Below, in pieces: positions 30,121-52,123 of a stretch of 64,000 nucleotides of DNA. The translations under genes and the position numbers were made by a program. The stretch is from Candidatus Heimdallarchaeota archaeon (GTDB lineage Archaea > Asgardarchaeota > Heimdallarchaeia > JABLTI01). Within the stretch, counting starts at the first letter, position 1. Each line of letters starts with the position of its first letter. The notes beneath the pieces were generated by a model, which saw only the letters and a list, made by a program, of their open reading frames with translations, did not search any database and was not told the origin of the DNA. The stretch is taken from assembly GCA_018238155.1 (NCBI GenBank), contig JABCTZ010000046.1, positions 64,001 to 128,000 of the forward strand, given 5' to 3'.

Positions 30121-32937
30121 TTGAATAAAAAGGAGCATTCCAATCAAGAAAATGCTGAAGCAATAATTATTCCCAGTGCTCATTGGGATAGAGAATGGTA
30201 CTTGCCTTTCCAATACTTTAGATTTAAGCTTGTTAAATTAATTGATGAATTGCTTGAAATCATGGAGAATAAAGAATATTATTTTATGCTTGACGGACAA
30301 ACAATTATTCTTGAAGATTACTTTGAAATACGCCCTGAAAATAAAGAAAAGCTTCTCAAATTAATACGTGAAAAAAAGATTTCTGTGGGACCTTGGTATG
30401 TTCTCCCAGATGAATGGTTAGTAGGTCAAGAAAGTCTAATCAGGAATCTAGAAATTAGTTTTGATCTCGCATATAGTTTAGATATCCCTCAAATGCAAGT
30501 TGGTTATTTACCAGATCAATTTGGTCATACTCGAGCCATACCACAGCTTTTATCGGATTTAACTAATTTTACTGCTACAGTAATTTGGAGAGGTGTTGGT
30601 CCTGAAATAACAAAGGTACCATTTATTTGGAAAAGTCATCCAAAATCAAAGAATCAGATTTTAGGCAACTATCTTCCGTTTGGTTACGGCAATTTTGCAG
30701 GTTTATCTGATAATATTGATTTAGTTAAAGAACTAATTGATGAGAAAATCAAAGAATTGAAGCCTTATTCACCGTTTCCTTATTATCTTCTGATGAATGG
30801 CACGGATCATCAAATGCCTCAAACATTTTTGATTGAACAAATACCAAAATTATCAAATGACAAATTGAAATTAAAGTTAGGTTTAATGGAAGAGTATATA
30901 CTCAAATTACATGATTTAATTGCACGAGAAAAATACTCTCCGGCAATTTATTATGGTGAATTTCGTTCGTCAGTAAAAGCACCACTATTACAAGATACTT
31001 ATTCTGCAAGAATGTGGATAAAACAATGGGATACAAAAATTGAGGATCTACTTGTTCATCATGGAGAACCTATTAGTACAATTTTACATTTTTATCTAGC
31101 TTATAAATACCCAACGTCTTATTTGAACTTAGCATGGAAATGGTTACTAAAAAATCAACCACATGATTCAATTTGTGGATGTTCTATCGATAAAACTCAT
31201 GATGAAATGAAATCTCGTTATTCATGGGCTGAAGGTATCGTAGAATCAGTAATTCAAGATTCACTTGAAATGATACAAAAAATGGAAACTGAAAAAAGTG
31301 ATTCATCTTGTTTGATTTTCAATCCAACTAATAATTCAAAGATACCAATGTGTGTTGAATTTTCTTTAGACGATAGTGACATTAAATCAATCGAAACAAC
31401 AACGGGAGATAATTACGACATTCAATCCATGACTTCATCAGAAGATATCTTCTTTGAAAGCACAATGAGTCCGTTCATCACTCAAGCGGGTTTGAAAATG
31501 CTACCAGGTAGAAGGTTAATGGATATTTACATTAATGAAGTATCCTTTGCTCCAAGAGATACTGACCCAACAGTACTAGATATTTCATTGATTTGTGGTA
31601 AAGAACCAATTGGAGAATTTGATGTTAAAGCAATGCAACAACAAGCGATTGAAATTTTGGATAGGAAGGAGTACAAAAAGTTTCATGTCAAAGTTTCTTT
31701 AGGAAGTAAACAATCTTACATAGGATTGTTACCTTTGAATCCTTGGTCATTTACAAAAATAACACTGAAGAAAGAAGTAAAGAAAGCTGATACTGATCCA
31801 ATAATAATAACCAATAATTCTGTAAGCAACAAATTCTATGATATTAGATTTAATAAAAATGGTTCTCTGAATTTATTCGATAAAGGATTAGAAAGAGAAT
31901 TTAGCAACCTCCATTATTTTGAAGATTGGGGTGATCGTGGAGATGAATACACATTTGGTCGCTTAGATCCAGTTGCTACGAAGGTTTCAAAGGTAAAAAG
32001 GAAAATTTCTCTGAAAGGTTCACTCGTAAGTGAAATAACTCAAGAACTAATTTTTAATACCTTTAAAGAAGTAAACGAAAAACGAGACAAGAGAATAGGT
32101 AAATCAAAAATAATCATTGAAACAATATTCCGGTTTTATAGAGATTTACCTAGAATAGATATCACTACTAAACTTGTCAATACAGCAAAGGACCACAGAT
32201 TTAGAATTTGTTTTCCGATGCCTTTTGAAACAACAAATACTTTAACATCAACACATTTTGGTTACATAGAAAGGCTTGGAGAAGCGATTGAAAACAAAGA
32301 TGTAGTTGAACAACCTTCAGGAATACAACCACAGAAACGATTCATTCGAGTGGAGTCAGAAGAAAAAGATCAAACTGCATTCACACTTATAAACAAAGGA
32401 TTGCCAGAAGTTGAATTGATAGGTAAATCGATTTTAGCATTAACTCTTATCCGATCTATCGGATTTCTCTCGAGATCAGATTACCCAGAGAGGCCAATGC
32501 ATGCAGGTCCTTATTTAGAAACACCAGGTGCCCAAGAATTAGGACAAGAATACCAATTTAGATACAGCTTCTTATGTCATTCTAAAGAAAAACCAATGAC
32601 GTTTAGTATAGATCACTCTGAAGCATTCTGTCTAGAAGGACAAAGCGTTGTTTTCAAAGATAGTAGTCCATTAAGAGATCTAACAAATCCACTAATTGAA
32701 ATCGAAAACCAGAATTTAAGATTGTCCTCAATGAGGATTCGAGATGAAAAACTTCAATTGCTAATTTTCAACTTGACTTCAGAGAATATACAATCTGAAA
32801 TAAAATTAGACAAGCAGTTCAGCAAATGCACTGATGTAAAAATTGATGGAACAATAAAACAAAGCTTTGTAATTTCAAAGAAGAAGATCATATTAACATT
32901 CGAGCCTTTCGAAATTAAATTATTACAAATCAAATAA
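30121..32937 (+). CDS. glycoside hydrolase family 38 (alpha-mannosidase)
   Basis: HWDREWY, LDGQ, GPWYVLPDE, YLPDQFGH, NGTDH, QPHDSICGCS and DRGDEY motifs. Confidence 0.95.
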   Translation: MNKKEHSNQENAEAIIIPSAHWDREWYLPFQYFRFKLVKLIDELLEIMENKEYYFMLDGQTIILEDYFEIRPENKEKLLKLIREKKISVGPWYVLPDEWLVGQESLIRNLEISFDLAYSLDIPQMQVGYLPDQFGHTRAIPQLLSDLTNFTATVIWRGVGPEITKVPFIWKSHPKSKNQILGNYLPFGYGNFAGLSDNIDLVKELIDEKIKELKPYSPFPYYLLMNGTDHQMPQTFLIEQIPKLSNDKLKLKLGLMEEYILKLHDLIAREKYSPAIYYGEFRSSVKAPLLQDTYSARMWIKQWDTKIEDLLVHHGEPISTILHFYLAYKYPTSYLNLAWKWLLKNQPHDSICGCSIDKTHDEMKSRYSWAEGIVESVIQDSLEMIQKMETEKSDSSCLIFNPTNNSKIPMCVEFSLDDSDIKSIETTTGDNYDIQSMTSSEDIFFESTMSPFITQAGLKMLPGRRLMDIYINEVSFAPRDTDPTVLDISLICGKEPIGEFDVKAMQQQAIEILDRKEYKKFHVKVSLGSKQSYIGLLPLNPWSFTKITLKKEVKKADTDPIIITNNSVSNKFYDIRFNKNGSLNLFDKGLEREFSNLHYFEDWGDRGDEYTFGRLDPVATKVSKVKRKISLKGSLVSEITQELIFNTFKEVNEKRDKRIGKSKIIIETIFRFYRDLPRIDITTKLVNTAKDHRFRICFPMPFETTNTLTSTHFGYIERLGEAIENKDVVEQPSGIQPQKRFIRVESEEKDQTAFTLINKGLPEVELIGKSILALTLIRSIGFLSRSDYPERPMHAGPYLETPGAQELGQEYQFRYSFLCHSKEKPMTFSIDHSEAFCLEGQSVVFKDSSPLRDLTNPLIEIENQNLRLSSMRIRDEKLQLLIFNLTSENIQSEIKLDKQFSKCTDVKIDGTIKQSFVISKKKIILTFEPFEIKLLQIK

Positions 32938-33218: not shown

Positions 33219-36200
33219 TTGAAAGTAATGACTGATAAAATGGGCTTAATTAAAAAATATGAACCATCTATGGCAAAAGCTGCAGCTGAGATGTTTAATT
33301 CATTCAAAGAGCTTTGGCCAGGAGGTTTCGGTGGTAGTGTTCCTTATACAGAACAGAGAGTTCAAGATTGGTTAGATAAAACGTCTGCGTATGCAGATCT
33401 AATTGCTGTAGATGAAGAAGGAACTTTAGCAGGATATTGTGGTTTGTATCCACATTGGCGAGACAAGAAAGCAGCATATATTTCTATCTTAGGTGTTACA
33501 CCTAAAGCACAAGGTAAGAAATTTGGAAAGAGATTATTATTAAAAGCTCTCGAGATAGCTTTAGAAAATGGTTTAACTCGTGTAGATCTCAATACATGGT
33601 CTGGAAATCTTGAAGCCGTACCATTGTACAAGAAGATTGGTTTGTTTTGGGTGCCAGAGACTGAAGTATATATGCAAGATTTTATTCCAGGAATATTGCA
33701 ATTACCTTTAGCCAAAGATTATTTTGAAAAACATCCAGATTGGTATAGTAGTTTCAAACGAGAGCTAACTCAAGCACCTGATGAGCATATAGTAGAAAAT
33801 ATGGAAATTTATTCTTATGTTTTCGAAAATGGAGAGGATAGACTTGAAGCAGAAGTTGATCGATATGGTTGGGGTTTTTGTAGTTTTAAAAGAATGTTAG
33901 ATGGAAAGAAAATTTCTATCGAAACGCGAATGAAATCACATAAGATATTTATTGGTATTCCAAATGCTATGACTATTCGAGTGCAAAATGAAAATGATCA
34001 AGATGCTAAAGTAAAACTGAAAATAGAAGCTTTTAAAGGATTGATATGGAAAGAACCCTTCCCCAAATCATTTGAACTTAAAAAAGGAGAAACTCTTGAT
34101 ATCACTCGAGAGTTTACTGTTGACAATACTACTACAGTATTCAAAGATAATAATAGAAGCTGTGAAAGAATAAAATCAACAATTTCCATTGAAGATCAAT
34201 CCATTGAGCTAATAACTAGTGGTAAAATACAATCTGCTATTGATCTCCGATCAATAAATGAAAACCGATTCATGTTTGTTCCTGTTGGGATAGAATCAGT
34301 TATTTCAATGGACCTCATCAATCACACCGATTTAGAATTAAAAGGAGAAATCAATATCAATATTCCAGGACTTGAGAATAGCAATCAATTAATTGATTTT
34401 GTAATACAACCAAACGCCATCTCTGGAATTCAAGTACCAATCACTTTTCCAATAAATATGAAGATAGATAAACTTACAATTGAAGCAACATCGTCATTTT
34501 CTTTCAATAATAAAATGGAGAAAATGCCTTGTTTTTATCATCCAATTATTGTGAAGAAAGATAATGTTATTGAATTGCTTGAATTTGAAGATACAAAAAG
34601 ACTCTACTTGGTAACAGACAAAGTTACTGTAAGAGCTGATCTTGAAGGGGGGAATCTTCGTGTTTATCAGCAAGATAATCAAGGAAATGTTCAATTACAA
34701 CATCAAGCAGGTCCACCTTTCGGACTTTCATTAGATAGAACGCTTCTACACACATACGAACTGAAGCAAAGTGGAAATTATACAACGTTAATTCTTAGTG
34801 CTAAAAGTCTCCAAGTCAAAGGTTTACATGTTAAGAAATATCTTAAAGTATCTCCTAGTTTAGATGAAGTAGAATATTGGGTTGAATATACTAATCAACT
34901 ACAGAATGGTTCCATTCATGTTTGTGGAAGAACATCATCAATTAGTGGAGGCATTACTCTCAGTCCAATGGCAGCAAAAGGAAAATCCTTTACTCCGATA
35001 AAAGGGAAAATCATTGAATGTGACTCAATTGCAGAATTTATTACAAGCCCATTGATAACCGAAGATACGAAAGATTGGTACGAAACTTGGACAGCTACAG
35101 AAGGTTTAATCTATAAAGATTTATCAACTTGGATCTGGAAACCAAACAATATTGAAAAAGTCAAAGTAAATAAAGGATCCCTTTCAAGACTTGATAGCAT
35201 AACCAAAGAAGTGAATTCAGGAGAAATCTTCAAACCAGTTCATTTGTGGTACTGTTTCGGAATGGTATCTCTACAAGAAGTTAGAAATCGCTGGAATCAG
35301 CTTGTTGGTAATACACACTTCAATTATCAAGAAGATTTTTTGGGTCCAAAAACAATCAAGTTAATTGAAGCGGAATTTGTAGATGGAAATATTGTTCGCT
35401 CAGGACAAACACATCTCAAAACAATAACATTAAATTTCAGCTCTTCATATCCGCTACAAGGTGCACTTACTCTGAAAGCACCCAAAGGGTGGCAAATTAA
35501 ATTCGTTGATGAAAAAGAAAAGAAAGAAACTATTCAACTGCCAAAATTTGTGCCTTTTATACCTATTCCAATACAAATCGAAATAATTGTCCCGGAAAAT
35601 TGCAAAGCATCTATAGAAAAATTACAATTACATCTTAGTTCTGAATTTGAACTTGATTTTAATCTTCCTGTACTCATTGCTTCAGGTGGAGAAGTTAAAA
35701 TTACAGAATCAGCTATCGGAGAAAGAAAGATCTACGAAGTATCAAACGGTTCGCTCTCATTCGTTGTACCAAGAGATATTGGTGGAAACTTGCTCAGACT
35801 AAAAGATGCAAAAGGAAAAACATTCCTAATTGATAATTTCCCAGAATTACAACCAAGATTCTTTTTCACACATAATATTGGTGGTATGCAACCAGCAGTA
35901 ATTCATTTCACAGCAAACAATCCTTTTTACAGACCAGAAATAACAACAACAGAAATAGAAGAAGATGGTCTGTGGAAGGGCATTAAATCCTCTTGGACAA
36001 TAACCAATGATAAAAAATACCTAATGGGATTAGGTGTTGAAACAACTTACCTTACTCTACCAGGTAGCAACATCATTAGAACGATAATCACTCTGAACAA
36101 CAAAACAGCAAGGAAAATGCCTTGTGGTTCAGGACTAATGGTTGACATAGGTCTAGATGGTTCTAGAGATAATAATGTAATTGAAGCTACTAGTGGAAGT

Positions 36201-36494
36201 GGTTTGTGGACACGCAATCCAGTTAAAAATCAATTTGTTGCAAATAGCTCATTTGATGAACCTTATTGTCGAGTAACGAAAGGAAAACAATCACTAGCAA
36301 TAATTATACCAGATGGCTATCCCGGATCAGCTATCTCTGTTGATCTTGTGATGATGCTATTAAATTGGATTATAAACTACACTTACGTCGAACCAAACGC
36401 AAAAACCACAACAGAAATGGCTATAATGATAAATCAACCTCGAGAGAAAATGGAAGAAGTAAGAATAGCTCTCAGGAAAAAAGTGACATTTTGA
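33219..36494 (+). CDS. large GNAT-family acetyltransferase (N-terminal GNAT plus ~900-aa beta-rich region)
   Basis: LGVTPKAQGKKFGKRLL and TWSGNLEAVPLYKKIG motifs. Confidence 0.85.
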   Translation: MKVMTDKMGLIKKYEPSMAKAAAEMFNSFKELWPGGFGGSVPYTEQRVQDWLDKTSAYADLIAVDEEGTLAGYCGLYPHWRDKKAAYISILGVTPKAQGKKFGKRLLLKALEIALENGLTRVDLNTWSGNLEAVPLYKKIGLFWVPETEVYMQDFIPGILQLPLAKDYFEKHPDWYSSFKRELTQAPDEHIVENMEIYSYVFENGEDRLEAEVDRYGWGFCSFKRMLDGKKISIETRMKSHKIFIGIPNAMTIRVQNENDQDAKVKLKIEAFKGLIWKEPFPKSFELKKGETLDITREFTVDNTTTVFKDNNRSCERIKSTISIEDQSIELITSGKIQSAIDLRSINENRFMFVPVGIESVISMDLINHTDLELKGEININIPGLENSNQLIDFVIQPNAISGIQVPITFPINMKIDKLTIEATSSFSFNNKMEKMPCFYHPIIVKKDNVIELLEFEDTKRLYLVTDKVTVRADLEGGNLRVYQQDNQGNVQLQHQAGPPFGLSLDRTLLHTYELKQSGNYTTLILSAKSLQVKGLHVKKYLKVSPSLDEVEYWVEYTNQLQNGSIHVCGRTSSISGGITLSPMAAKGKSFTPIKGKIIECDSIAEFITSPLITEDTKDWYETWTATEGLIYKDLSTWIWKPNNIEKVKVNKGSLSRLDSITKEVNSGEIFKPVHLWYCFGMVSLQEVRNRWNQLVGNTHFNYQEDFLGPKTIKLIEAEFVDGNIVRSGQTHLKTITLNFSSSYPLQGALTLKAPKGWQIKFVDEKEKKETIQLPKFVPFIPIPIQIEIIVPENCKASIEKLQLHLSSEFELDFNLPVLIASGGEVKITESAIGERKIYEVSNGSLSFVVPRDIGGNLLRLKDAKGKTFLIDNFPELQPRFFFTHNIGGMQPAVIHFTANNPFYRPEITTTEIEEDGLWKGIKSSWTITNDKKYLMGLGVETTYLTLPGSNIIRTIITLNNKTARKMPCGSGLMVDIGLDGSRDNNVIEATSGSGLWTRNPVKNQFVANSSFDEPYCRVTKGKQSLAIIIPDGYPGSAISVDLVMMLLNWIINYTYVEPNAKTTTEMAIMINQPREKMEEVRIALRKKVTF

Positions 36495-36522
36495 AAGGGA
36501 ATACCCTTTTACCTCTTTTTTT
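36494..36522 (+). terminator. hairpin plus T-tract after the GNAT gene
   Basis: AAAGGG-AATA-CCCTTT followed by a T7 run. Confidence 0.5.
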
Positions 36523-36570
36523 CACGAATATTCCTAAAGCTAAACTCTTTTTAATTGTTTTAAAGATTAG

Positions 36571-39500
36571 AATATTATCGATATCAATGGATCAGCTATA
36601 TCCAAAATTCATGCAGTAGAAATTGCGGAAGCAGATCAAGATAGCTATAACTTTTTTGAAATTCTTATGTTATCACAATTTTCATCAAATGATTCAATCT
36701 CTTCTACAGGACTGCAAATTTTTGAATCTTTTTCAACTGTAACTGATGACTATATTTATGATAATCCAACATATAGTGATGATGATTTACCTGGAGCTTC
36801 ACATTCAAATACCTTTGATAGTTTTGGTCATACGATTATTGTTGACGATGTTGATAATGATGGTATACACGAAACGATTATTGTTGGAAAAGATTATCTG
36901 AAAATATTTGGCTATGATACTTTCAATGATACGGCAATTCCATTAGTTTTGGATATCAATGATGAAACATACCCATTAATGGGTGGAGGTGCAGGAGTCT
37001 TTGATATAGATGGGGATTCCTATAATGAATTAATTGTTGGTTGTAATAATGGTACAACTTTGATTTATCAAATTGCTGATTTAAATTCCAATGATGCAAT
37101 TGAGGATTTATTAGCTATCACGGAATGGAAAGGTGATTTAGGTACCATGCCAGGTAAAAGAGGTTCAATAATAGGTTTGGATGTTGATGGAGATGGAGTA
37201 GATGAAGCAATTATTGGTGACCAATTTGGTCAAATAATCGTTCTAGGTTTAGGTGAATTGCCGACTTTTTCAATTACTTCTCCAATTGAGGGATATACTT
37301 CTAATCAAGAAACTATCTTATTTGAATGGGAAACCTCAAATGATACTTTGCCAATAATGTTCTACGAAATTTACATTAATGCTACATTTTCTTTAAGAGT
37401 TGGTGGAGCTCAAACTGGTGCAGTGATTCCTCTAGAACTGGGGAGCAATTCTATAACCATTGTTTGTACAGATATTCAAGGTAAAACTGATTCAGACAGT
37501 CGAATAGTGATATATAATGTAGGAGCACCAGTAATCGAAATAACAAAACCCGAGAACGGCTATTTGACAGATCAATCATCTATTACCATTTATTGGGTTG
37601 CATTTGATCCTCAATCAGATATACTGACGTATGAAATATATGCTAATGGTACTCTTAAAGGAACACCAACAACGTCACTACATACTTTTATTTTAGATTC
37701 AGAAGGTATTTGGAATATTACTATAATTGCAGATGATGGAGCTGGTGATAGAGTAAAAGATATGATTTATGTTATTTTTGACCGAACAGGTCCAGTCATC
37801 ACTATTACTTTACCTGCAGATGATTCTTTTGTAAGTACCGATTCAATTCATCTTCAATGGTCAGCACATGATGAGTTTACTTCTATTGATTATTATGAAA
37901 TTTATCGTGATGGATTTCTACAAGGAAATACAACATCGAAATTTTATGATGTCGATATTGCAGTAGATAAGATATATACTTTAGAAGTAATAGCCTATGA
38001 TGTTTTAGGCAATTATGATTCAGATTCAATCCAGATTACTCGAGATATGATCAACCCTTTTGTTTCCTTAGAAGCTTTAAGCTATCCAACAAATTATGAT
38101 GGTTGGTATGTTACTGATTTGGGTGATTTATTTATTGAATGGAATGGTACTGACACAGGAAGTGGCATAGACTATTTTGATGTCTTAGTAAATGATGAAC
38201 AATATGGCATCTATCCAGCTACTGCTGAGAACGACACAGTTACTCTAACAGAAGGACCAAATGATGTTGAAATAATTGCCTATGATAAAGCAGGTAACTC
38301 AGCCTCTGCTTATTACATTGTTGCTTATGATGTATCGAATCCTCTAGTAACGATTATTTCTCCAGAGAACAATCACTTAACTAGTGCAGAAAATGTAACC
38401 GTTTTCTGGGATGCTTCAGATGTAAGTTCTGGATTAAAAGAAATTTCCGTTATTGTTGACGGTTTCATTCAAGCTACTTTTACAGATTCTTCAATTAATT
38501 CATATTTAGTCAATATCTCTGAAACAAAAATTTACTCCATAACCATTCAAGTCATAGATTTTCTAGATAATTTAGCAGAAGACACTATTAATGTTGAACA
38601 TGACCCTATTTCACCAATTTTAATTGTAACTAGTCCATTAGCTGAAACTAGTTTTATCAATTCAACTTATGTAGAAGTATCTTGGGAAACTATAAACATC
38701 TCCCCAGATGAATTCGCCGTTTTTATTAATGGAACAGCTTACAATTATACTGCAACCATTTTTGATGCTATTATCAATTTAGAAGACGTATTTGGAACAA
38801 TTGATGAAAATACGTATCCAAAAGTGAATATAACTGTAGTAGCTGTTATCGGTGGCCAATATCAATATCCTAATACAAAATATGTTACTGTTGATTTAAA
38901 GAGCCCACTTGTAGCCATTAGCTCTCCTATTAATTTTGCAACGATTTCTGATGATTCAGTTGTGATAACTTGGACAGGAAGCGATATTGGTTCTGATATC
39001 AGTAGTTATACATTATGGGTAAATGATACATTAATTGGCAGCTGGGATAAGACGATTACTGTACGAGAGATAAATGTTGAAAGTTATTCTGATGGAGTAT
39101 ATATGATAATACTGGAAGGTCGAGATTTCGCGGGTAATGGTTTTAATTCAATCATTTACATCAATCTTTTCTCATCTGATCCTGAATTCACTCTTAATAT
39201 CCCAATTTCGTTACTAACTAATGACCCAAGTTTCCCATTCATAATCTCAATTACTAATCCTAGTTCAGGCATACAAGAAGTATCTGTTTTAGCAGATAAT
39301 TCAGAAATTGTTTATTATATCAATTACAATGAGAGTTATCAAGTTAATCATTTTGATATTGCGATTAATGTAGAAGAAATGAATTTTGTTTCACCAACAA
39401 ATGAACACAATTTAACAATAACAATATATGATCGTGGTGGACGAAGTGCAACTACAATAGTAAATGTTATTGTTGATAAGGAGAATCCAAATATAATCGA

Positions 39501-40623
39501 TCCAATAATTGATAGCACTTTACTAGGTCCTTATGGATTTACTATTGAAATTTCAGAAAATAGAACGGATACACATAATTTTACTTTGAAAACAACAGAT
39601 TCAAGTGGAATCCAACAAGCCAATTTACTCATCTTTAATGAAAACTACAGTTTCTCTTACATGATGACATTAGACACCGAATTTGTATCTTCTACTTTGT
39701 TTAAATTTGATGCATCCGTTAATTTTGATGATTACATTGCAGTAGTATATAGTATACAAATATCGATTACAGATAACGCTGGTAATACACATTCACAAAC
39801 ATATCAGTTACAAATCATTTTAGAAGAACAACAAATTATTTCAACACCACCAACTAGCCCTGGAGAGGTGAATCAGTGGTTAAAAGATAATCTCTTTACC
39901 ATTGTCATCCCAAGCGCTGCAGGATTACTATTAATGCTCATTTTAGCAATTATCATTTCTGTTGCAATTCGTAAGAGAGGAGTAAATCATGGTTGGCGTG
40001 ATGTTGTTAAAGCAGTCGCATATGTTACCAAAACTGGATTAACTGTCGCATATGTTCGGTACACTGAAGATATATACACTGATGAACAACTGTTTGGCGG
40101 TGCATTAACTGGTATTGTAGGTATCTTGGGAGAAATAACAGGTGAAGAAGAAGTTACTATGAAAGTTCAAACGATGGAATACGGTGGTAAACGTCTTCTT
40201 GTTTGTTCAGGAATTTTTGGAAACGCTATTCTATTAGCAAGTGAAACAAAACCCATTTTGAAAGAATTACTCAAAAAGTTCATTCTCGAATTTGAATTAA
40301 CTTACAAGTTTAATCTTGCTCAAGATATGCTTGATTTAAATGATTATGAGGCTGCTCCCTTAATGGTTGAAAGTTACTTTGGAGTGGGAATTGAGAATAT
40401 TAGAAATGATCAAGAAGCTCCTCTTACAATGGAAGATTTTGATCAAAACACCTCTGATTTTTCTCTTTCAGAGGTGCATATTGAAGAAAACTCTGAAGAA
40501 TTATCAACGAACTATAATCAAACAACTGAAACCTTAGATGAAACTCTTCCTGCTGAAGAAGTAGAACATGGTGAATCTTTTGATAATAATCAAGATTCAT
40601 TTGATGAAAACAATAATGAGTAA
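36571..40623 (+). CDS. 5'-truncated FG-GAP/Ig-repeat single-pass receptor with cytoplasmic longin-like domain (first ATG 36667)
   Basis: Homology to 41045..46567 starts abruptly at about its residue 450 (SKIHAVEIAE vs EKVHAIEIAD), right after an in-frame TAG at 36568-36570. No signal peptide. Has DxDxDG motifs, 9 Ig-like repeats, a TM, a longin-like domain and an acidic tail. Confidence 0.8.
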   Translation, partial: NIIDINGSAISKIHAVEIAEADQDSYNFFEILMLSQFSSNDSISSTGLQIFESFSTVTDDYIYDNPTYSDDDLPGASHSNTFDSFGHTIIVDDVDNDGIHETIIVGKDYLKIFGYDTFNDTAIPLVLDINDETYPLMGGGAGVFDIDGDSYNELIVGCNNGTTLIYQIADLNSNDAIEDLLAITEWKGDLGTMPGKRGSIIGLDVDGDGVDEAIIGDQFGQIIVLGLGELPTFSITSPIEGYTSNQETILFEWETSNDTLPIMFYEIYINATFSLRVGGAQTGAVIPLELGSNSITIVCTDIQGKTDSDSRIVIYNVGAPVIEITKPENGYLTDQSSITIYWVAFDPQSDILTYEIYANGTLKGTPTTSLHTFILDSEGIWNITIIADDGAGDRVKDMIYVIFDRTGPVITITLPADDSFVSTDSIHLQWSAHDEFTSIDYYEIYRDGFLQGNTTSKFYDVDIAVDKIYTLEVIAYDVLGNYDSDSIQITRDMINPFVSLEALSYPTNYDGWYVTDLGDLFIEWNGTDTGSGIDYFDVLVNDEQYGIYPATAENDTVTLTEGPNDVEIIAYDKAGNSASAYYIVAYDVSNPLVTIISPENNHLTSAENVTVFWDASDVSSGLKEISVIVDGFIQATFTDSSINSYLVNISETKIYSITIQVIDFLDNLAEDTINVEHDPISPILIVTSPLAETSFINSTYVEVSWETINISPDEFAVFINGTAYNYTATIFDAIINLEDVFGTIDENTYPKVNITVVAVIGGQYQYPNTKYVTVDLKSPLVAISSPINFATISDDSVVITWTGSDIGSDISSYTLWVNDTLIGSWDKTITVREINVESYSDGVYMIILEGRDFAGNGFNSIIYINLFSSDPEFTLNIPISLLTNDPSFPFIISITNPSSGIQEVSVLADNSEIVYYINYNESYQVNHFDIAINVEEMNFVSPTNEHNLTITIYDRGGRSATTIVNVIVDKENPNIIDPIIDSTLLGPYGFTIEISENRTDTHNFTLKTTDSSGIQQANLLIFNENYSFSYMMTLDTEFVSSTLFKFDASVNFDDYIAVVYSIQISITDNAGNTHSQTYQLQIILEEQQIISTPPTSPGEVNQWLKDNLFTIVIPSAAGLLLMLILAIIISVAIRKRGVNHGWRDVVKAVAYVTKTGLTVAYVRYTEDIYTDEQLFGGALTGIVGILGEITGEEEVTMKVQTMEYGGKRLLVCSGIFGNAILLASETKPILKELLKKFILEFELTYKFNLAQDMLDLNDYEAAPLMVESYFGVGIENIRNDQEAPLTMEDFDQNTSDFSLSEVHIEENSEELSTNYNQTTETLDETLPAEEVEHGESFDNNQDSFDENNNE

Positions 40624-40658
40624 ATGAAATACAAAACGTATTTCATATTACTTTTTTT
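40624..40658 (+). terminator. hairpin terminator
   Basis: ATGAAATAC-AAAAC-GTATTTCAT followed by a T7 run directly after the stop codon. Confidence 0.55.
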
Positions 40659-40887
40659 AAAAGTTCTTCGCAAGCTTTCTCACAGAATCCATTGATGCCA
40701 AATCGGCAACCATTAATTCTACTGCCGAATTTCCGCTTGAACTTTTAATTTCCTCTACTTCTTCTTTTCCTTTTGTGGCATCTCGACATACGAGAATTAC
40801 TTTTGCATTCATTTCCGCAAGCTCTTGGGCAACTGCTTTTCCGATTCCAGAATTAGATCCAGTAACCATACAAATTTGGTCTTTCAT
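40657..40887 (-). pseudogene. 3'-truncated short-chain dehydrogenase (retinol-DH-like), 76 aa
   Basis: VTGSNSGIGK Rossmann motif and ADLAS..SVRKLA, then a stop. No NNAG or YxxxK is recoverable downstream. Confidence 0.8.
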
Positions 40888-41044
40888 AATAAATACCATC
40901 AATCTTCTTTCAAATAACCAAGATTTCAAATCATTTAACAAAATAAAACCATTAAAGTTGTCGGTCAAAAACAAATGTGAATAATCTATAGAAATTTTCA
41001 ATATGAGTGTTAGATTGATTCACTTTTTTCATTTTTGAGAGAAA

Positions 41045-44000
41045 TCAGATATCAGACCATTTTTCAGCTATCTCATTGAACCAAATTTTAGTTGAATTTT
41101 CAATTGCTTGCTTCAACCTAAAATTGTTATTTTGTCGTCCTGCATCAATAGCTACTCTTATTTCATTGGTAATTGTTCTCATATTTTCAATAAACAACTG
41201 TAATTCAAAATTCGTTCTCTCTAATTGACGTATTAAATCTAAATCCATAATCACAGATTGTAAATGAAAATCTGCCTCATCAAAATTCTGTTCGGTTAAT
41301 GCAATTATTATAGTAGGAGTAGATGAGATTATTTTCATAAGACTTCTATTTGCTTCTCGAGATAATTGGCTTACTAGATGATCTATAGGGGAATCACTTT
41401 TATGAATTAAATCAAAATCTTTCTTATCCTTTTCAGTTGAATGGGTTACTTCAGGTTCAATATCATTGATAACATTTTGTAATTGATTTGTAATTCCAGC
41501 TTCTGGGGTTATCTCTTTTACTGAGCCAAAGATTTTTTCTACAAGTTCTTCACTACCAGAAAATGAACTACTATCCACAAAGTATAGATTTTCCAATGCA
41601 TTAGAATATTTCTTGACAAATTTGTTGTCAAATTTCTTTAGCAATTTTACATGTATTGGTTTAACTTGATTAACCATTAAAACACTAATCCCATGTTCAC
41701 CTAAGAAAAGAAACATTGTTTTGTCACCTAATTCCAAAGTTTCGATTGTTCCTTTCAGCTTCCGTCCTGAAATTTCTGTAAGCATACTTTGAATTGCTAC
41801 CATTGCACCGCCAATCAATTGTTCTTCTTGAATCAATTTAGTAACATAGTTGACACTAACACATGTTAGTCCGGTCTTCTTAACATATAGCACGGCAATA
41901 ATTTCTTCTCGCCAGTTTTTGTTTTGTATTGGTCCTCTAGTTACCGCTGCTAATAATATTGAAATAATTACGAATCCACTAATCCCTATGGAAAGATAGA
42001 GAGCATTATTTCCTTGTTGCAACCATGAATTACCTGCTTCTGGAACAATTGCCAAATTGTATGATAAACTTTGATTATTGCCTGCAAAATCAAATGTGGT
42101 GAAAATAATTGTATATTCACCTATTTCAAAATCAGCCAAACTTAGATTTAGAGAGTAAATTGCAATCTGAACTCCTTCTGTTTCAGTAATCATATCATAT
42201 GTTACAGATGAATCATCACCAAGAATAGTCATTGTAACTCCATCTAGCCCAAAATTATCTGTAACCGTTATTAAGATGGATAGAATCTTTTCGCTTCCAT
42301 TTAGTACTTCCAAACCATCTGCGGTCAATAATACAGAATTGATTGTAATATCAGGTAGTATTGTTGGTGCTTCTGTGTCGATATTAATAATATATAATTG
42401 AATCAATTCACGATTGTAATAATCAAGTACTGCAACTTCAAGTTCGTGGCTATCATCAAATCCGATAAATGATGATACATTAAAATCATATGAAATGGTA
42501 AATGACTCATTTCGTATTGATAGTTCATAATTCTCATTTACTATTTCATCATTATCTAACAATATGATTAAACCCTTTACACCGGATTGTGTATCTGTTA
42601 TCGTAAACTCAAATTGGAAATCACCATCTTGTGTATAATAAATAGTAGGGATATTTGCTTCATAGTCAGGCATTAAGATATTCAGAAGTAGTGTGATATT
42701 ACTAGTAACCCTGTTAGAAGCCAAATCTAAAACTTCAACAGTTATTAATTGTTCTCCATCTTCCTCATCAAATATTAGATAGAAATAATTCTTATCACAA
42801 GAGCAGAAATTAAGATATTGACCATTTATCAAAATTCTGTAACTATATACACCTGATCCTTGATCATTTGCTGTCCACTGAATATAAACAATATCTTGGA
42901 AATAAGTAGTATAATTTGTTGGAGTAGTTATTATAACTGTAGGTTCAGATTGATCCACAATTATCCATTTTGTATCTGAAATATTGTTACTCAATGTCTG
43001 AATAATAATTGTTAGATTAAAGAGAGGATATTCATCAATTGCGATATCACCCAAATCAATAACAGTATTTCTTGTTGAAATCTCACTAATAGTTTGATTA
43101 AGTATCTCGTTAACATAAATACAGTATGAAATGAAATTTTGAATATTTGATACATCCCATTCAATTGAAATTTGTGAATCAGAAATGTAAGATAAATTTG
43201 CTTGTGGTGTAACCAACGCAATTGAAGGGAGTGTAGAATCTTGAGTTACAGTAATCGTATCATTAAATGCGTAACCGTAAAGATCAACTACACCAATAAT
43301 TATCGAGGATGTGTGATCAAGGGCTAAAGGAACAATTGTGGTAGTTACTAGTGGATTACTTATTATTTCAATTAATATATTATCAACATAGATATTATAT
43401 TCAGATATTCCAGAACCAGTATCATTACTATACCAATTAGCAATAAAATAATCCAAACCAGTTGTGAAACCTGTTTCGGGAGAAATAATCTCAAGATAAG
43501 GAATAGTATTATCAACAAAAATGATGATATGATCAGAATCAATATTTCCTGCTAAATCATAAGTAGTTACAATGATATCTTTAACTCCTTCATTTTCTAC
43601 TGAAAATGTAGTTGTTGTTGCACCTATACCAGAATATTTTGTTTGTTGATCAACAACCACTTCAGTATGGTGAATACCTGTACCACCAATATTATCCTCT
43701 GCATCCCAATTAATAGTAATTTGATCTGATGAAGTTTTATAGCCATCAATTGGATCAGTAATCGAAATTGATGGTTTTGCTGTATCCTTCACAATTGTAA
43801 TAGAATCTATTCTTGAATTACTTAATTGATCGTATGCAGTTACTCGTAAACTGTATGTTTTATCTGTATCCAATGCTACCAATTGTGAAAGTGTGGAAGT
43901 AGTTGCATACACTTGTCCATCTTTTTCTATTACAAAATGTGATAAACCACTAAGAGCATCAGATGCTGACCATTGCATCTCAATTATTGCTAGTTTCATT

Positions 44001-46567
44001 GCTGAACCACTAATTGGAGTAGTAATTGTCATTAAAGGAGCAGTTGTGTCAACTGTTACGAATATTGAACTCCTTCCCCTATTAGATGCTAAATCAACAC
44101 CAACAACTGTGATATTATGTTCACCATCGGTATTCAAAGTTAAATCTACGAAAGTAGTTGAAAGATTATAATCTCCACCTAATTGGGATTCATCCACCCA
44201 AATTTCATAATGATTAAAATCACCATTAGGATCAAAATAATTGAATTCTATTCTAATATTGTTAGAAGCAGTTTGGAAATAATTTTCAGGAGTAGTAATA
44301 TGAATTTCTGGGGCAGTTGTAGATTGACTAACAATGATTGAATCCGAAGCACTCTTACCATTTATATCAAAACACTGGACTTTAATTGTATTACTTGATG
44401 ATGGCAATGAAACTAGAAAAGCTGCTTGGCTCCCATTCACTCTACCTTGAATTGAGCCTTCTACGAAAATATCATAATGATGGATAGTGAAGTCGTCAAG
44501 TCCTTCCCAAGTAATTAGAATAGATGTTGTTGATACAGATGAACCTGATGATGGAGAGAGAATTCTTATCTCTGGAGTGGTTGATTTTCCCAAAATTAGT
44601 ATTTGACCAAAGTTATCACCGAATATTATCTCTGTTTCTCCGTCTTCATCTAAATCATAAGCTAGAATTGACTTTCTTTTTCCAGAGGAAGAACCAATAT
44701 CACTTGACCATTCTACATTATATGACAATGAATTACTTCCAGAATCAGTAATATTGATTACATATATACTGCCGTTATTGCAACTAAAAACCAGTTCATT
44801 AAATGAGTCATCATCAACATCCCAGAGTAATGCGCCACCACCCATAAATGGAGAATTTTCATTATCATTAATTTTGAATTCTAAATGTGGTTCGGCATCT
44901 AAGAAGGAATTAACACTCAAGATTCTCAAATAATTTTGTCCTACTAAAACTATCTCTGATTCCAAATCGTTGTCAACATCTGCAACAATTATTGTATGAC
45001 CAAAATTATCTTCAGTTAAAATAGATGAAGCGGATGGTAAATTATCATTAGTATTTTCAAGGAATTTTGCCACAGTTCTCTCATAGATTTGTAATCGAGT
45101 CGTTGAAACTGAATCGTCTGAAGTTATTTGTAAATTCATAAGTATTTCATATTTACCGTCTGTATCAACATCGGCAATTTCTATTGCGTGGACTTTTTCT
45201 ACTGTATAACCAGTAACAATTGGTTTTATGGGCGCTTTTTTATCCTGTTTAAAAAGACCGGTGGCATTAACATAATCTAAAACAGAGACCTCTCCATTTT
45301 GATCACCAAATACTAAATTCATTACACCCATATTTGTTGCTTCTCCAATTGCAAGATATCCTGTTAAACTTGAAGTATGAATAAAAGCATAATCTGATTT
45401 ATCAAAATCATTCGTATCTTCGTCCCATTCTGTTAACCTTAGAATTCTGCTATCTTCCCCTGCAAGATATAATTCATCTTGTCCATTTTCATCGAAATCA
45501 TAAGCAATAATTTGCTTCACTAAAAACATCTTTAATTGATGTGTTGTAAACCAAGATGACCATATTTTGACTAATTCTCCGTCAATTGTATTATATATCG
45601 CTAATAAATTATTATCTGAAGTAACTGTTCTATTTGAGCTAACAATTAGCTCTAAATCTCCATCTCCATTTATATCAGCTGTAGTCATAAACGTTCCATT
45701 ATTAGAACCGATTGCAGAATCCTTAATATTAAAATTATCTTCAATAGAGAATTTTGTAAAATAATCACCGGAATTTTTCCCAATAAATAAATCACCCCAA
45801 AGACCTGCATTTAATCTTATATTGTTTAAAGTTGTTTCAACAAAAGGCCAAGTATTTTCCTCATTATCACCATTTAGATTTTCAAAAACTTCAAAAGCTA
45901 TTCCAGTTATTTCTCCAGGAGCTACTTGCATAAATGACAATGGAATAATTATTTCATATTGTCTATGAGAATCTTCTTTGAAGAATGATCCTTTGAAATC
46001 AGTATCAATTATTACATGTGAAGATGTCAAATTTTCCTCAAGAAACCCAGTTTCAATTTCAACCCAATAATTATTCAGAGCTGAATATTGATAGATAATT
46101 ACTAGATTATCTGTTGCATTTGATTTGTAAGATATTGCGCGGTCATTTTGACTTAACATACCATTATGATCACGATCTAAGTATACACCCATACCCCAAG
46201 TGCTTGCCGGGGATTCCGTAGTATAACTTATTACATCAACTCCAACATAGAGATTTGTATCATCATTTTTTAAAAGCAATTTAGAGGATGGATCCTGATC
46301 AGAATCATATAAATCGTATATTGCTGCAGTTGTCCATTCACTTGCAGAACTCGAAGAATTAAAATCAACAAAACCATCTATTAGAGGTATAGTATCATTC
46401 CATAATGAGAATATTTCCATTGGACTAGATACCGGTGAATGTGCTGAAATATAATTGTTTGAATGTTGATTATTTAGTACTAATGGAATAAGTATCAAAC
46501 AAACTACTAGAATCGATACTTTTGATTTGCTTATCATTTTAAGATTATTTTTAAATTTCGAGCTCAT
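41045..46567 (-). CDS. integrin-alpha-like surface receptor: signal peptide, CBM9/DOMON-like domain, FG-GAP propeller, 9 Ig-like repeats, TM, longin-like domain, helical C-terminal domain
   Basis: Six DxDxDG-type Ca-binding motifs plus one degenerate copy, repeats starting PxIxIxxP, TM ALYLSIGISGFVIISILLAAVT, then a bb-a-bbb-aa longin pattern (EEQLIGGAMVAIQSMLTEI). Confidence 0.82.
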   Translation of the reverse strand: MSSKFKNNLKMISKSKVSILVVCLILIPLVLNNQHSNNYISAHSPVSSPMEIFSLWNDTIPLIDGFVDFNSSSSASEWTTAAIYDLYDSDQDPSSKLLLKNDDTNLYVGVDVISYTTESPASTWGMGVYLDRDHNGMLSQNDRAISYKSNATDNLVIIYQYSALNNYWVEIETGFLEENLTSSHVIIDTDFKGSFFKEDSHRQYEIIIPLSFMQVAPGEITGIAFEVFENLNGDNEENTWPFVETTLNNIRLNAGLWGDLFIGKNSGDYFTKFSIEDNFNIKDSAIGSNNGTFMTTADINGDGDLELIVSSNRTVTSDNNLLAIYNTIDGELVKIWSSWFTTHQLKMFLVKQIIAYDFDENGQDELYLAGEDSRILRLTEWDEDTNDFDKSDYAFIHTSSLTGYLAIGEATNMGVMNLVFGDQNGEVSVLDYVNATGLFKQDKKAPIKPIVTGYTVEKVHAIEIADVDTDGKYEILMNLQITSDDSVSTTRLQIYERTVAKFLENTNDNLPSASSILTEDNFGHTIIVADVDNDLESEIVLVGQNYLRILSVNSFLDAEPHLEFKINDNENSPFMGGGALLWDVDDDSFNELVFSCNNGSIYVINITDSGSNSLSYNVEWSSDIGSSSGKRKSILAYDLDEDGETEIIFGDNFGQILILGKSTTPEIRILSPSSGSSVSTTSILITWEGLDDFTIHHYDIFVEGSIQGRVNGSQAAFLVSLPSSSNTIKVQCFDINGKSASDSIIVSQSTTAPEIHITTPENYFQTASNNIRIEFNYFDPNGDFNHYEIWVDESQLGGDYNLSTTFVDLTLNTDGEHNITVVGVDLASNRGRSSIFVTVDTTAPLMTITTPISGSAMKLAIIEMQWSASDALSGLSHFVIEKDGQVYATTSTLSQLVALDTDKTYSLRVTAYDQLSNSRIDSITIVKDTAKPSISITDPIDGYKTSSDQITINWDAEDNIGGTGIHHTEVVVDQQTKYSGIGATTTTFSVENEGVKDIIVTTYDLAGNIDSDHIIIFVDNTIPYLEIISPETGFTTGLDYFIANWYSNDTGSGISEYNIYVDNILIEIISNPLVTTTIVPLALDHTSSIIIGVVDLYGYAFNDTITVTQDSTLPSIALVTPQANLSYISDSQISIEWDVSNIQNFISYCIYVNEILNQTISEISTRNTVIDLGDIAIDEYPLFNLTIIIQTLSNNISDTKWIIVDQSEPTVIITTPTNYTTYFQDIVYIQWTANDQGSGVYSYRILINGQYLNFCSCDKNYFYLIFDEEDGEQLITVEVLDLASNRVTSNITLLLNILMPDYEANIPTIYYTQDGDFQFEFTITDTQSGVKGLIILLDNDEIVNENYELSIRNESFTISYDFNVSSFIGFDDSHELEVAVLDYYNRELIQLYIINIDTEAPTILPDITINSVLLTADGLEVLNGSEKILSILITVTDNFGLDGVTMTILGDDSSVTYDMITETEGVQIAIYSLNLSLADFEIGEYTIIFTTFDFAGNNQSLSYNLAIVPEAGNSWLQQGNNALYLSIGISGFVIISILLAAVTRGPIQNKNWREEIIAVLYVKKTGLTCVSVNYVTKLIQEEQLIGGAMVAIQSMLTEISGRKLKGTIETLELGDKTMFLFLGEHGISVLMVNQVKPIHVKLLKKFDNKFVKKYSNALENLYFVDSSSFSGSEELVEKIFGSVKEITPEAGITNQLQNVINDIEPEVTHSTEKDKKDFDLIHKSDSPIDHLVSQLSREANRSLMKIISSTPTIIIALTEQNFDEADFHLQSVIMDLDLIRQLERTNFELQLFIENMRTITNEIRVAIDAGRQNNNFRLKQAIENSTKIWFNEIAEKWSDI

Positions 46568-50189: not shown

Positions 50190-51353
50190 TTGTCAATAAT
50201 GATAAACCCACATGGTAATAAGCTAACTGATAAAGTTTTACCAGAAAAAGAAAAAATTCGAATTGAATCGGAATTTCAATCTATGCTCAAATTAGAGGTA
50301 AATAACGAAGTGATTGAGGATCTTTATAACATCGCACATGGTGTTTTTAGTCCTCTTGAAGGTTTCATGGTTGAAGAAGATGTTCAATCCATCATTAAAA
50401 ACGATAGACTTACTAATGATTTAGCATGGACCATTCCTATTACATTTGACGTCAATGATGATACAGCAAAAGGATATTCTGAAGGGGATGATATTGCCTT
50501 AACGAATAGTGAAGGAAAAATTATTGCTGTTTTACATTTAGAACAAATCTATAAGCACGAGAAGAAAGCTATCGCTGAAAGCTGTTTTCAAACCTTAGAT
50601 AAAGATCATCCTGGAGTAGAAAAAGTACTCAATTCCAATGACAACTTATTTGCAGGTAAAATAGATCTCGTGAACACTTTTATCAAAGATTTTAAGGAAT
50701 ATACTTTCTACCCCCAACAAACCCGGGCTCTATTCAAGAAAAAGGGATGGAAGACTGTTGTCGGTTTTCAAACTAGAAACGTTCCTCATCTTGGTCATGA
50801 ATACGTACAGAAAACAGCATTGACAATGGTAGATGGGCTATTTGTTAACCCTATCATTGGTAAAAAGAAAACAAATGACTTCACTGACCCAGTTATTTTA
50901 GGCTCATACAATGTTCTTATGGACAATTATTACCGAAAAGATAGAACGATGATGGGTATTCTCAGAACTCGAATGAGATACGGTGGACCAAAAGAAGCAA
51001 TTTTTCATTCAATTATGAGAAAGAACTTTGGTTGTAGTCATTTCATTGTTGGAAGAGATCATGCAGGTGTAGGTAGCTATTATGGACCATTTGATGCACA
51101 TGCGATTTTTGATAAATTCCCTGAATTGGAAATCAAACCAATTTGCTTCCGCTCGTTCTTCAAGTGCGATAAATGTGGTGGCGTTGTTAATGATTACACT
51201 TGTCCACACGATGGCACTGAATATCAAAAGATGATTAGTGGACGAAAAATAAGAAAAATGATCGTCGATAAACAACTTGACGGGTTAACCGAATATATGC
51301 GCCCTGAGGTTGCTGAATACCTTCTGAATCAAAAGGAGTTATTTGTAAAATAG
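50190..51353 (+). CDS. sat: sulfate adenylyltransferase
   Basis: FSPLEGFM, FQTRNVPHLGHE, MRYGGPKEAIFH, HFIVGRDHAGVG, and Zn motif CDKC...CPH. Confidence 0.96.
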   Translation: MSIMINPHGNKLTDKVLPEKEKIRIESEFQSMLKLEVNNEVIEDLYNIAHGVFSPLEGFMVEEDVQSIIKNDRLTNDLAWTIPITFDVNDDTAKGYSEGDDIALTNSEGKIIAVLHLEQIYKHEKKAIAESCFQTLDKDHPGVEKVLNSNDNLFAGKIDLVNTFIKDFKEYTFYPQQTRALFKKKGWKTVVGFQTRNVPHLGHEYVQKTALTMVDGLFVNPIIGKKKTNDFTDPVILGSYNVLMDNYYRKDRTMMGILRTRMRYGGPKEAIFHSIMRKNFGCSHFIVGRDHAGVGSYYGPFDAHAIFDKFPELEIKPICFRSFFKCDKCGGVVNDYTCPHDGTEYQKMISGRKIRKMIVDKQLDGLTEYMRPEVAEYLLNQKELFVK

Positions 51354-51386
51354 AATAAAATTGAAAAATATTGAGTGTGAAAATTA

Positions 51387-51938: not shown

Positions 51939-52123
51939 GAGAGGGAATTATTTCTTTCTTCTTTTTTTTAAAAAAAAATAGCTATTTTTTCCTTCAATTT
52001 TAATTAGAAGCAAATAAAACGCTATAAAATAGTCATTTTTTTTACAAAACAATTATATTCATTCTATAGTTACTAGAATTAAATTGGCATTCAATCTATT
52101 TTAGAAATACAGGTGGCTCATTT

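Follow-up and report, generated by a model that had tools for sequence, protein, structure and literature searches.

Surface proteins of a Heimdall-group Asgard archaeon join a predicted seven-bladed propeller and an Ig-like stalk to a longin-type cytoplasmic tail

Genomes of Asgard archaea encode dozens of small GTPases together with longin and roadblock domains, the cellular roles of which are essentially obscure, and cultured cells of this group show no internal vesicles and possess an envelope with large surface proteins and actin-filled protrusions. In eukaryotes longin domains with their characteristic order of two strands, a helix, three strands and two helices (bb-a-bbb-aa) are known from VAMP7, Sec22b and Ykt6, from Bet5 and Trs23 of TRAPP, from Mon1-Ccz1 and Fuzzy-Inturned and from the SRX domain of SR-alpha; in longin SNAREs the domain is N-terminal and the anchor C-terminal, while other longins are soluble. 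The fold also recurs in roadblock, profilin and GAF-like sensors. On the outer side of the membrane, integrin alpha exposes a seven-bladed FG-GAP propeller with DxDxDG-type loops on a beta-sandwich stalk (thigh and calf) and ends, after a single membrane helix, in a short peptide tail. Bacterial and archaeal FG-GAP/Big-repeat adhesins, acidic modular proteins with propellers, immunoglobulin (Ig)-like repeats and expanded sets of paralogs, normally end in a bare anchor or sorting signal. Another protein that crosses the membrane once and carries an FG-GAP propeller is LINKIN (ITFG1; PMC4275582). Here we describe two genes, P0001 and P0002, found in a stretch of 64,000 nucleotides of Candidatus Heimdallarchaeota archaeon (assembly GCA_018238155.1, contig JABCTZ010000046.1, positions 64,001 to 128,000; hereafter the window), the products of which share some features with these systems and differ from them in others.

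The intact gene P0002 extends from 46567 to 41045 on the minus strand and encodes 1840 amino acids (aa), arranged as a signal peptide, a beta-sandwich, an FG-GAP propeller, nine Ig-like repeats, a transmembrane (TM) helix, a longin-type domain and a helical C-terminal domain. The plus-strand paralog P0001 (36571..40623, first ATG at 36667, stop at 40623; 1318 aa) converges on it tail-to-tail, and the two products agree in 33% of 1313 aligned residues (E 3e-168). Open reading frames (ORFs), Pfam and models thus confirmed what the initial annotation had noticed, namely two paralogs with propeller repeats, Ig repeats, a TM segment and a cytoplasmic tail. Full-length orthologs of P0002 were found in two congeners (1842 aa in G123 and 1838 aa in G259), the ratio of nonsynonymous to synonymous substitution rates (dN/dS) relative to the G123 ortholog being 0.14. 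Close relatives, from Heimdallarchaeota or "Asgard group" metagenome-assembled genomes (MAGs), are all annotated as "hypothetical protein". In this Heimdall-group Asgard archaeon the family represents type-I surface proteins that are specific to its lineage. Its parts (FG-GAP propeller, Big repeats, longin/roadblock fold) are known, but their combination into a type-I receptor ending in a longin-type domain appears to be new, and the literature searched, the coverage of which was incomplete, contained no report of such tails on Asgard surface proteins or, more widely, of longin tails tethered to the membrane in Asgard archaea.

The longin-type domain of P0002 (aa 1548-1685; 41513..41926, minus strand) was modelled by AlphaFold2 (AF2) from an alignment of 80 family members with a predicted local distance difference test score (pLDDT) of 89.3 and a predicted template-modelling score (pTM) of 0.85. 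Strands 12-19 and 24-29, helix 38-56, strands 63-69, 72-78 and 82-88 and helices 93-115 and 122-136 of the model follow each other as b-b-a-b-b-b-a-a(-a), which is the order b1-b2-a1-b3-b4-b5-a2-a3 of the eukaryotic longins, and b1 is preceded by a 4-residue turn after the TM helix with no N-terminal helix. Exactly this feature distinguishes longins from roadblocks, since the former lack the N-terminal helix and have an extra C-terminal helix in its place (PMC10933270). Phenylalanine 136 in the last helix (F136) is invariant across all 80 members, which means that the C-terminal helices are part of the domain. The corresponding domain of P0001 (aa 1107-1242; 39985..40392, plus strand) is 36% identical to the P0002 tail, was matched by the own-genome profile with E 1e-42 and contains the same motifs, KTGLT, EQLxGGA and EI(S/T)G; both the motifs and the bb-a-bbb-aa periodicity reported initially are therefore present. 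The TM helix and tail are under constraint, with dN/dS of 0.09-0.14. Unlike longin SNAREs, P0002 lacks a SNARE motif and carries the domain at its C-terminal cytoplasmic end, approximately 10 residues past the TM helix, so that the tail, in contrast to the soluble longins, is tethered to the membrane.

In structural alignments (VIA) the best match of the tail was the longin domain of VAMP7 (Z 12.7, 119 residues), followed by Sec22 (Z 11.9, model residues 11-138 aligned to Sec22 1-125) and then Fuzzy, while the longin domain of a Lokiarchaeota Roadblock-Longin protein (8yqg) gave Z 11.8 over 128 residues. As a whole, alignments with longins have Z of 11.8-12.7 over 116-128 residues with a root-mean-square deviation (rmsd) of 2.7-3.6 and cover residues 6-140 of the model. 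Roadblock/LC7 proteins (MglB, LAMTOR2/3 and the Asgard Roadblocks 9jue, 7yh1 and 7f8m) share the core (Z 9.6-11.6, rmsd 2.2-2.4, about 100 residues), but their alignments are confined to residues 7-112, and two or three conserved C-terminal helices of the tail lie past this end. Prometheoarchaeum Roadblock3 was the closest of them (Z 11.6) and showed the highest identity, 23%. Foldseek returned a mixture of MglB/roadblock and longin chains with MglB chains in the first place (E 1.4e-4).

Sequence comparisons were less selective. The tails of P0002 and P0001 taken alone had no longin or roadblock match in Pfam at E <= 10 and no match at all in NCBIfam; against the Protein Data Bank (PDB) the tail profile detected TRAPP Bet5 with E 0.0035. 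Among the 80 family members sub-threshold Pfam matches were registered for Fuz_longin_1 (11 members, best E 4.6e-4) and, in six members each, for Robl_LC7, Sybindin and Intu_longin_1, and no score exceeded the cut-off of a curated longin family (Longin, Sybindin, Fuz_longin_1, Intu_longin_1). In hhalign the tail was related to a Robl_LC7 protein of the same genome with a probability of 69%. Thus, as judged from the predicted model, the tail is a longin-type member of the longin/roadblock superfamily standing outside every curated longin family, while its sequence would place it between longin and roadblock, inseparable from Roadblock/LC7. The longin domain proposed by the initial annotation stands, therefore, as a fold in a confident model, which VAMP7 and Sec22 match over the whole domain, but not as a family that sequence alone could separate from Roadblock/LC7. 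A homodimer model of the P0002 tail scored 0.02 against a mark of 0.42, which is evidence neither way.

An exhaustive search of 1.84 billion representatives with the tail profile yielded 298 proteins at E <= 1e-3, of which 36 also passed E <= 1e-10. At E <= 1e-5 the profile matched 300 of the 301 sampled Asgard genomes, usually at least 13 times in each. Among the 150 best library matches a TM segment was predicted upstream of the domain in 128 and was lacking in 22; 40 cross the membrane once and possess a large N-terminal part, 5-8 TM segments were predicted in 35 (~360-390 aa) and at least nine in 19, and the remaining 34 either combine 1-4 TM segments with a short N-terminal portion or represent fragments. 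As a rule the domain comes immediately behind a membrane helix. Fusions with the major facilitator superfamily (MFS) domain MFS_1 account for 19 of the 87 matches scanned, and a few family members carry HisKA and PAS domains. In the genome under study the profile finds 31 ORFs, including proteins with 6-7 and with 4 TM segments, soluble proteins of ~700 aa and a GTPase fusion; the same longin-like C-terminal domain follows 6-7 predicted TM segments at C41:178684-179862, C3:42964-44112, C19:17014-18093 and C15:204882-206720. Since one and the same tail is attached to 5-8-TM proteins, to MFS transporters and to other single-pass proteins, it can be regarded as a general membrane-to-cytoplasm adaptor module common to many Asgard membrane proteins. 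A structure search of the ESM Atlas also revealed the tail fold in Thermoplasmatota DUF11/CARDB surface proteins. Among distant library matches the ~360-390-aa class was the commonest architecture.

The complete architecture (query coverage ~1-1840) was found only in the window's own family, in which it was registered in 10 of 10 genomes, being fragmentary in the less complete ones; the other 290 sampled Asgard genomes matched in the Ig-repeat region only. Four receptor paralogs are present in this genome, namely the window pair and the genes at C1:97004-102541 and C44:13458-19085, and the tail alignment contains four matching subgroups. Other surface proteins with FG-GAP/PQQ-like propellers are encoded at C29:74475-77156, C20:170273-172447 and C44:8878-13137; two of these (893 and 724 aa) bear a longin-like domain near the C-terminus, and one 1419-aa propeller protein with TSP3 repeats adjoins the C44 receptor paralog.

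A single hydrophobic helix directly precedes the tail in each protein, as had been stated for both paralogs: a hydropathy scan places it at aa 1521-1547 of P0002 (41927..42007, minus strand), followed by the basic RGPIQNKNWRE, and at aa 1074-1106 of P0001 (39886..39984, plus strand). The ectodomain is acidic, with only 4% lysine plus arginine and 25 N-x-S/T sequons, whereas the tail contains 11.6% of these basic residues and has an ordinary composition. Together with the basic residues behind the helix, this contrast is what one expects of an archaeal surface glycoprotein of type I, and a cytoplasmic C-terminus is predicted accordingly. The stalk of P0002 (aa 665-1505, ~840 residues; 42053..44575, minus strand) consists of nine Ig-like repeats of ~90 aa of the Big_7/Glucodextran_B type, in agreement with the number counted initially. 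Eight of them were located by a regular expression, which finds starts at 665, 753, 844, 932, 1023, 1114, 1209 and 1300, spaced 88-95 aa apart, and the ninth, more divergent one was read by eye at ~1400. Big_7 matched P0002 with E ~1e-22 (1.3e-22) in 4-5 stretches, and Glucodextran_B and Big_13 also match both proteins. The stalk of P0001 (aa 199-1065; 37261..39861, plus strand) was delimited by Big_7 (2.4e-21), Glucodextran_B (3.4e-11) and repeat starts.

The propeller of P0002 (aa 271-664; 44576..45757, minus strand) is recognised by Pfam FG-GAP_3 (3.5e-16) and FG-GAP (1.6e-07), both over the cut-off at residues 280-680, where sub-threshold echoes of BBS1/2/7 and ITFG2 propellers were also registered. 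Residues 281-665 contain six D-x-[DN]-x-[DN]-x-x-x-[DE] loops, while 0.41 are expected from shuffled sequences (maximum 4), and the seventh blade is degenerate. These putative calcium-binding loops correspond to those characteristic of the integrin-alpha propeller. In the AF2 model of residues 1-690, built from an alignment of 20 sequences, the 28 strands of residues 274-660 form seven four-stranded blades with pLDDT of 85-94 across residues 290-660. Structural alignment (VIA) of model residues 267-664 with closed seven-bladed propellers gave Z of 25-30: 29.7 for the EPTP propeller of LGI1, 29.6 for BBS2, 28.5 for the KICSTOR chain 9o5a_E, 28.1 for BBS9 and 25.3 for integrin alpha6, the last one over 338 residues; Foldseek TMt values against BBS9, BBS1 and 9o5a_E were 0.65-0.72. 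According to these matches the modelled repeats close into a seven-bladed propeller, as the seven blades noted in the intact copy implied. By the shape of the model integrin alpha is no closer to it than many other propellers.

The N-terminal part of P0002 is less certain. A signal peptide or signal anchor occupies aa 1-35 (46463..46567, minus strand; hydrophobic stretch 9-35 in the hydropathy scan) and was modelled by AF2 as one helix of low confidence. It is followed by a beta-sandwich module of about 12 strands (aa ~45-270; 45758..46435, minus strand; pLDDT 60-88). The CBM9/DOMON-like nature initially ascribed to this module is a candidate assignment: the CBM9_1 match is sub-threshold (E 0.007-0.015, 15.6-16.7 bits at a cut-off of 23.4) and occurs in 1 of 14 family members, the corresponding lead from a language model scored 0.86, below the 0.9 level, and the module profile had no meaningful match among PDB sequences. 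In fold searches with the 690-residue model (aa 1-690) the match lists were filled by propellers and not by this module.

Based on these data, one can assume that the proteins act as surface receptors whose longin tail docks a GTPase-linked cytoplasmic partner; we regard this as the best explanation and assign to it a probability of about 0.45. The signal peptide would export the large acidic ectodomain with its many sequons, the propeller head would bind an external ligand or partner surface (cell, matrix or glycan), and the longin domain, lying immediately beneath the membrane, would dock a cytoplasmic partner. The exported, constrained ectodomain and the membrane-proximal longin-type domain were observed or modelled, and from them we infer the docking platform. 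Most likely its partner would be one of the ~50 small GTPases encoded in this genome or a protein that regulates them, since this is how longin and roadblock domains function in TRAPP, Mon1-Ccz1, Ragulator, SR-alpha/beta and MglB, and events on the cell surface might thereby be coupled to GTPase-controlled processes beneath the membrane. The proposed GTPase coupling is consistent with the finding that the tail profile matches, with E 7e-9, the C-terminal domain of a 321-aa Arf/Rag-like GTPase fusion of the same genome (C7:132484-133449). Asgard longin and roadblock domains are indeed often fused to Rag/Arf-like GTPases (PMC10933270; bioRxiv 10.1101/2020.10.19.343400). More speculatively, and with distinctly lower confidence, the tethered longin module may be the receiving end of an Asgard-specific or greatly expanded transmembrane signalling system, through which receptors, 5-8-TM proteins and transporters alike would directly recruit or regulate small GTPases. 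Were this so, the system would be a prokaryotic forerunner of the eukaryotic receptor-to-GTPase coupling and of longin platforms for guanine nucleotide exchange factors (GEFs) and GTPase-activating proteins (GAPs), with the FG-GAP/Ig giants as its adhesion-sensing members.

Several observations weigh against the assumption of a GTPase-linked receptor. No partner of the tail was identified, and glycan binding may be suggested only by the sub-threshold CBM9 match. All structural evidence consists of predicted models, and the fold alone gives no function; the partners of SNARE longins, for instance, are adaptors and not GTPases. None of the four receptor paralogs has a GTPase, roadblock or longin gene as its neighbour, and of the 31 domain-bearing ORFs four, one being itself the GTPase fusion, have a GTPase gene at a distance of 3.5 kb or less, where roughly three are expected by chance, so GTPase adjacency across the tail family looks no higher than rough chance. 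This is in line with strain MK-D1, the GTPase genes of which as a rule do not share operons with genes for roadblock or longin domains (PMC10933270). The main rival view takes the proteins for structural envelope proteins or adhesins, the tail of which sorts, anchors or oligomerises them without signal relay or GTPase regulation, positioning or clustering the proteins (for example, in protrusions) through coat, adaptor, ESCRT or cytoskeletal partners or through self-association. The longin domains of VAMP7, Sec22 and Ykt6 act in this manner with AP-3, Hrb and Sec23/24. This explanation, which seems to us possible but less probable, agrees with the fact that the best structural matches are SNARE longins whose solved structures include a bound adaptor or coat (4afi, 2vx8, 3egd), that the same tail is present on MFS transporters and 5-8-TM proteins without obvious need for signalling, and that GTPase genes are missing near the receptor genes. 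The presence of four paralogs in each genome and the rapid evolution of the stalk also suit surface-coat or adhesin proteins, and Asgard cells lack an S-layer and bear many "complex surface proteins" on their single membrane (PMC9834061). On the other hand, here too no adaptor partner was identified, no internal membrane traffic was seen in cultured Asgard cells, and most prokaryotic longin and roadblock domains, Asgard fusions included, are associated with GTPases (PMC10933270; the fusion in the genome under study).

The ranking of MglB in Foldseek, the identity to Roadblock3, the hhalign and Robl_LC7 matches and the recognition of the GTPase-fused domain permit one to consider the tail as a Roadblock/MglB-type domain supplemented with a C-terminal helix, dimers of which would form a membrane-fixed GAP/GEF platform for an MglA- or Rag-like GTPase. 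Bacterial MglB and the conservon of Streptomyces, where a membrane sensor is combined with roadblock and GTPase, provide parallels. We nevertheless find it improbable because the N-terminal helix is replaced by the short turn after the TM segment, and the conserved C-terminal helices with F136 align only with longins. Far less probable still is a small-molecule or lipid sensor of the GAF/PAS-like alpha/beta class, reporting the cytoplasmic state to the ectodomain: weak PAS_GdpP matches (4 of 80 members, E 0.002) and the few members with HisKA and PAS could be interpreted in this way, but the 50 best structural matches are all longin, roadblock or profilin, with no GAF or PAS among them. The lowest credence of all is given to true integrin-alpha homologs, which would signal adhesion in both directions, paired either with a beta-like subunit or with one another. 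The propeller with its calcium-loop motifs, the beta-sandwich stalk, the single TM helix, the integrin alpha6 alignment and the convergent pair, conserved in four congeners, speak for this idea. However, the thigh and calf domains (Pfam Integrin_A_Ig_1-3) were not matched in P0001 or P0002 at E <= 0.1, nine Big_7-type repeats standing in their place, and a genome search with PF08441 was empty, the control genomes being silent too. The juxtamembrane motif GFFKR is absent from the sequences following the TM helix, RGPIQNKNWREE in P0002 and RKRGVNHGWRD in P0001 (RGPIQNKNW and RKRGVNHGW at the corresponding place), and a folded domain of ~135 aa substitutes for the short integrin tail. Integrin beta (PF00362) was not found in this genome, which is 90.7% complete, with the control genomes equally silent, so that this negative result is a weak one. 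Besides, BBS, LGI1 and WD40 propellers match the model as well as or better than integrin alpha6, FG-GAP propellers are widespread in prokaryotes (PMC3192720), and one member of the pair is truncated here. With three defining features failing, these proteins are not integrins, and the "integrin-alpha-like" label of the initial annotation survives as an analogy of layout. FG-GAP/Big-repeat adhesins resemble them in the modules of the ectodomain, acidic composition and paralog expansion but normally lack the conserved cytoplasmic globular domain after the anchor.

The presence of the longin tail on receptors, 5-8-TM proteins and transporters gives the longin and GTPase-related domains of Asgard archaea a concrete site at the membrane. 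It also offers a testable idea, that such tails link the cell surface to GTPase or adaptor machinery, which bears on receptor-GTPase coupling and membrane identity before eukaryotes. The proteins themselves are candidates for the "complex surface densities" of cryo-tomography and for cell-cell contact in syntrophy. Should the tail merely anchor or oligomerise them, the domain architecture would still be new, though of modest reach.

The two genes of the window differ in their integrity. P0001 begins at the equivalent of P0002 residue ~480 (its residue 4 aligns to residue 480), has no signal peptide and keeps three propeller blades, which corroborates the earlier remark that one copy is not intact. 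In blastn, window positions 34720-36584 correspond to L033 19001-17138 and positions 36580-40658 to L033 15730-11631, so that the junction of a deletion of 1,407 bp relative to congener G123 is located at 36580..36584. Lost with it were 51 bp upstream of the gene and codons 1-452, that is the promoter region, the signal peptide, the N-terminal module and four propeller blades; short imperfect microhomology (ATATTG...GATAT) is shared by the breakpoints. The frame is open from 36571, directly after the stop codon 36568-36570, and between 36571 and 36667 homology to P0002 continues back to this stop but contains no start codon, which accounts for the start at 36571 given initially. In the closest genome, G123 (a Heimdallarchaeota MAG with 80-87% nucleotide identity), both genes are full length (1842 and 1806 aa), and G259 has the same convergent pair, also full length (1838 and 1809 aa); in G289 and G277 profile matches appear as convergent tail pairs in open frames of ~1780-1860 aa. 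Since no decay is evident in the remaining 1318 codons of P0001 (dN/dS 0.215 overall and 0.09 in the TM helix and longin domain), the deletion is either recent or an artefact of assembly. The truncated protein has probably ceased to act as a receptor. In the possible heterodimer of the two paralogs proposed initially, one partner would, in this genome, be devoid of its signal peptide and of four blades.

The convergent stop codons are separated by an insertion of 360 bp (40659-41018), where congeners have 50 bp. Its minus-strand ORF (40657-41001) encodes a ~75-aa N-terminal fragment of a short-chain (SDR-type) dehydrogenase with the Rossmann motif TGSNSGIGKA and resembles a gene remnant, representing, besides the deletion, the second local rearrangement that flanks P0001. 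Behind the longin-type domain P0002 has a C-terminal extension (aa 1686-1840; 41048..41512, minus strand), the last ~115 aa of which form a conserved helical domain (aa ~1725-1840, 41048-41395) that could be aligned in 18 sequences from P0002 orthologs and several paralog groups. It had no match in Pfam, NCBIfam or by the language model, and PDB profiles returned nothing beyond designed helical bundles and AfTRAX (E >= 0.02). P0001 has instead an acidic, fast-evolving tail (to 40620; dN/dS 0.78).

The receptor genes are surrounded by genes for a glycoside hydrolase family 38 (GH38) mannosidase, GNAT proteins, a diacylglycerol (DAG)-kinase-like protein, a 721-aa helical protein and a phosphoadenosine phosphosulfate (PAPS)/sulfotransferase cluster. 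The GH38 alpha-mannosidase is encoded upstream, at 30121-32937, as is a 1091-aa GNAT-fused protein, at 33219-36494. The sulfation cluster (50190-53248), at a distance of 3.6 kb from the receptor gene, includes ATP sulfurylase (50190-51353), adenosine phosphosulfate (APS) kinase (51387-51938) and sulfotransferase (52124-53248). This cluster, the mannosidase and the GNAT-fused protein possibly form a neighbourhood for the modification of surface glycans. Three small-GTPase genes, among them that of the 321-aa fusion, are clustered at C7:131435-135006, 3.4-7 kb past the end of the window. Of the 31 domain-bearing ORFs only C11:62743-63756, where an N-terminal longin-like domain is followed by 4 TM segments, has a GTPase gene close by, an Arf-like one 309 bp away (C11:64065-64433). 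Divergent from the intact receptor gene, the segment 46769-49994 contains the DAG-kinase/YegS-like gene (302 aa) and the gene of the 721-aa all-helical protein, for which no family was found; the same synteny is observed in congener G123, and the large protein is also present in G259.

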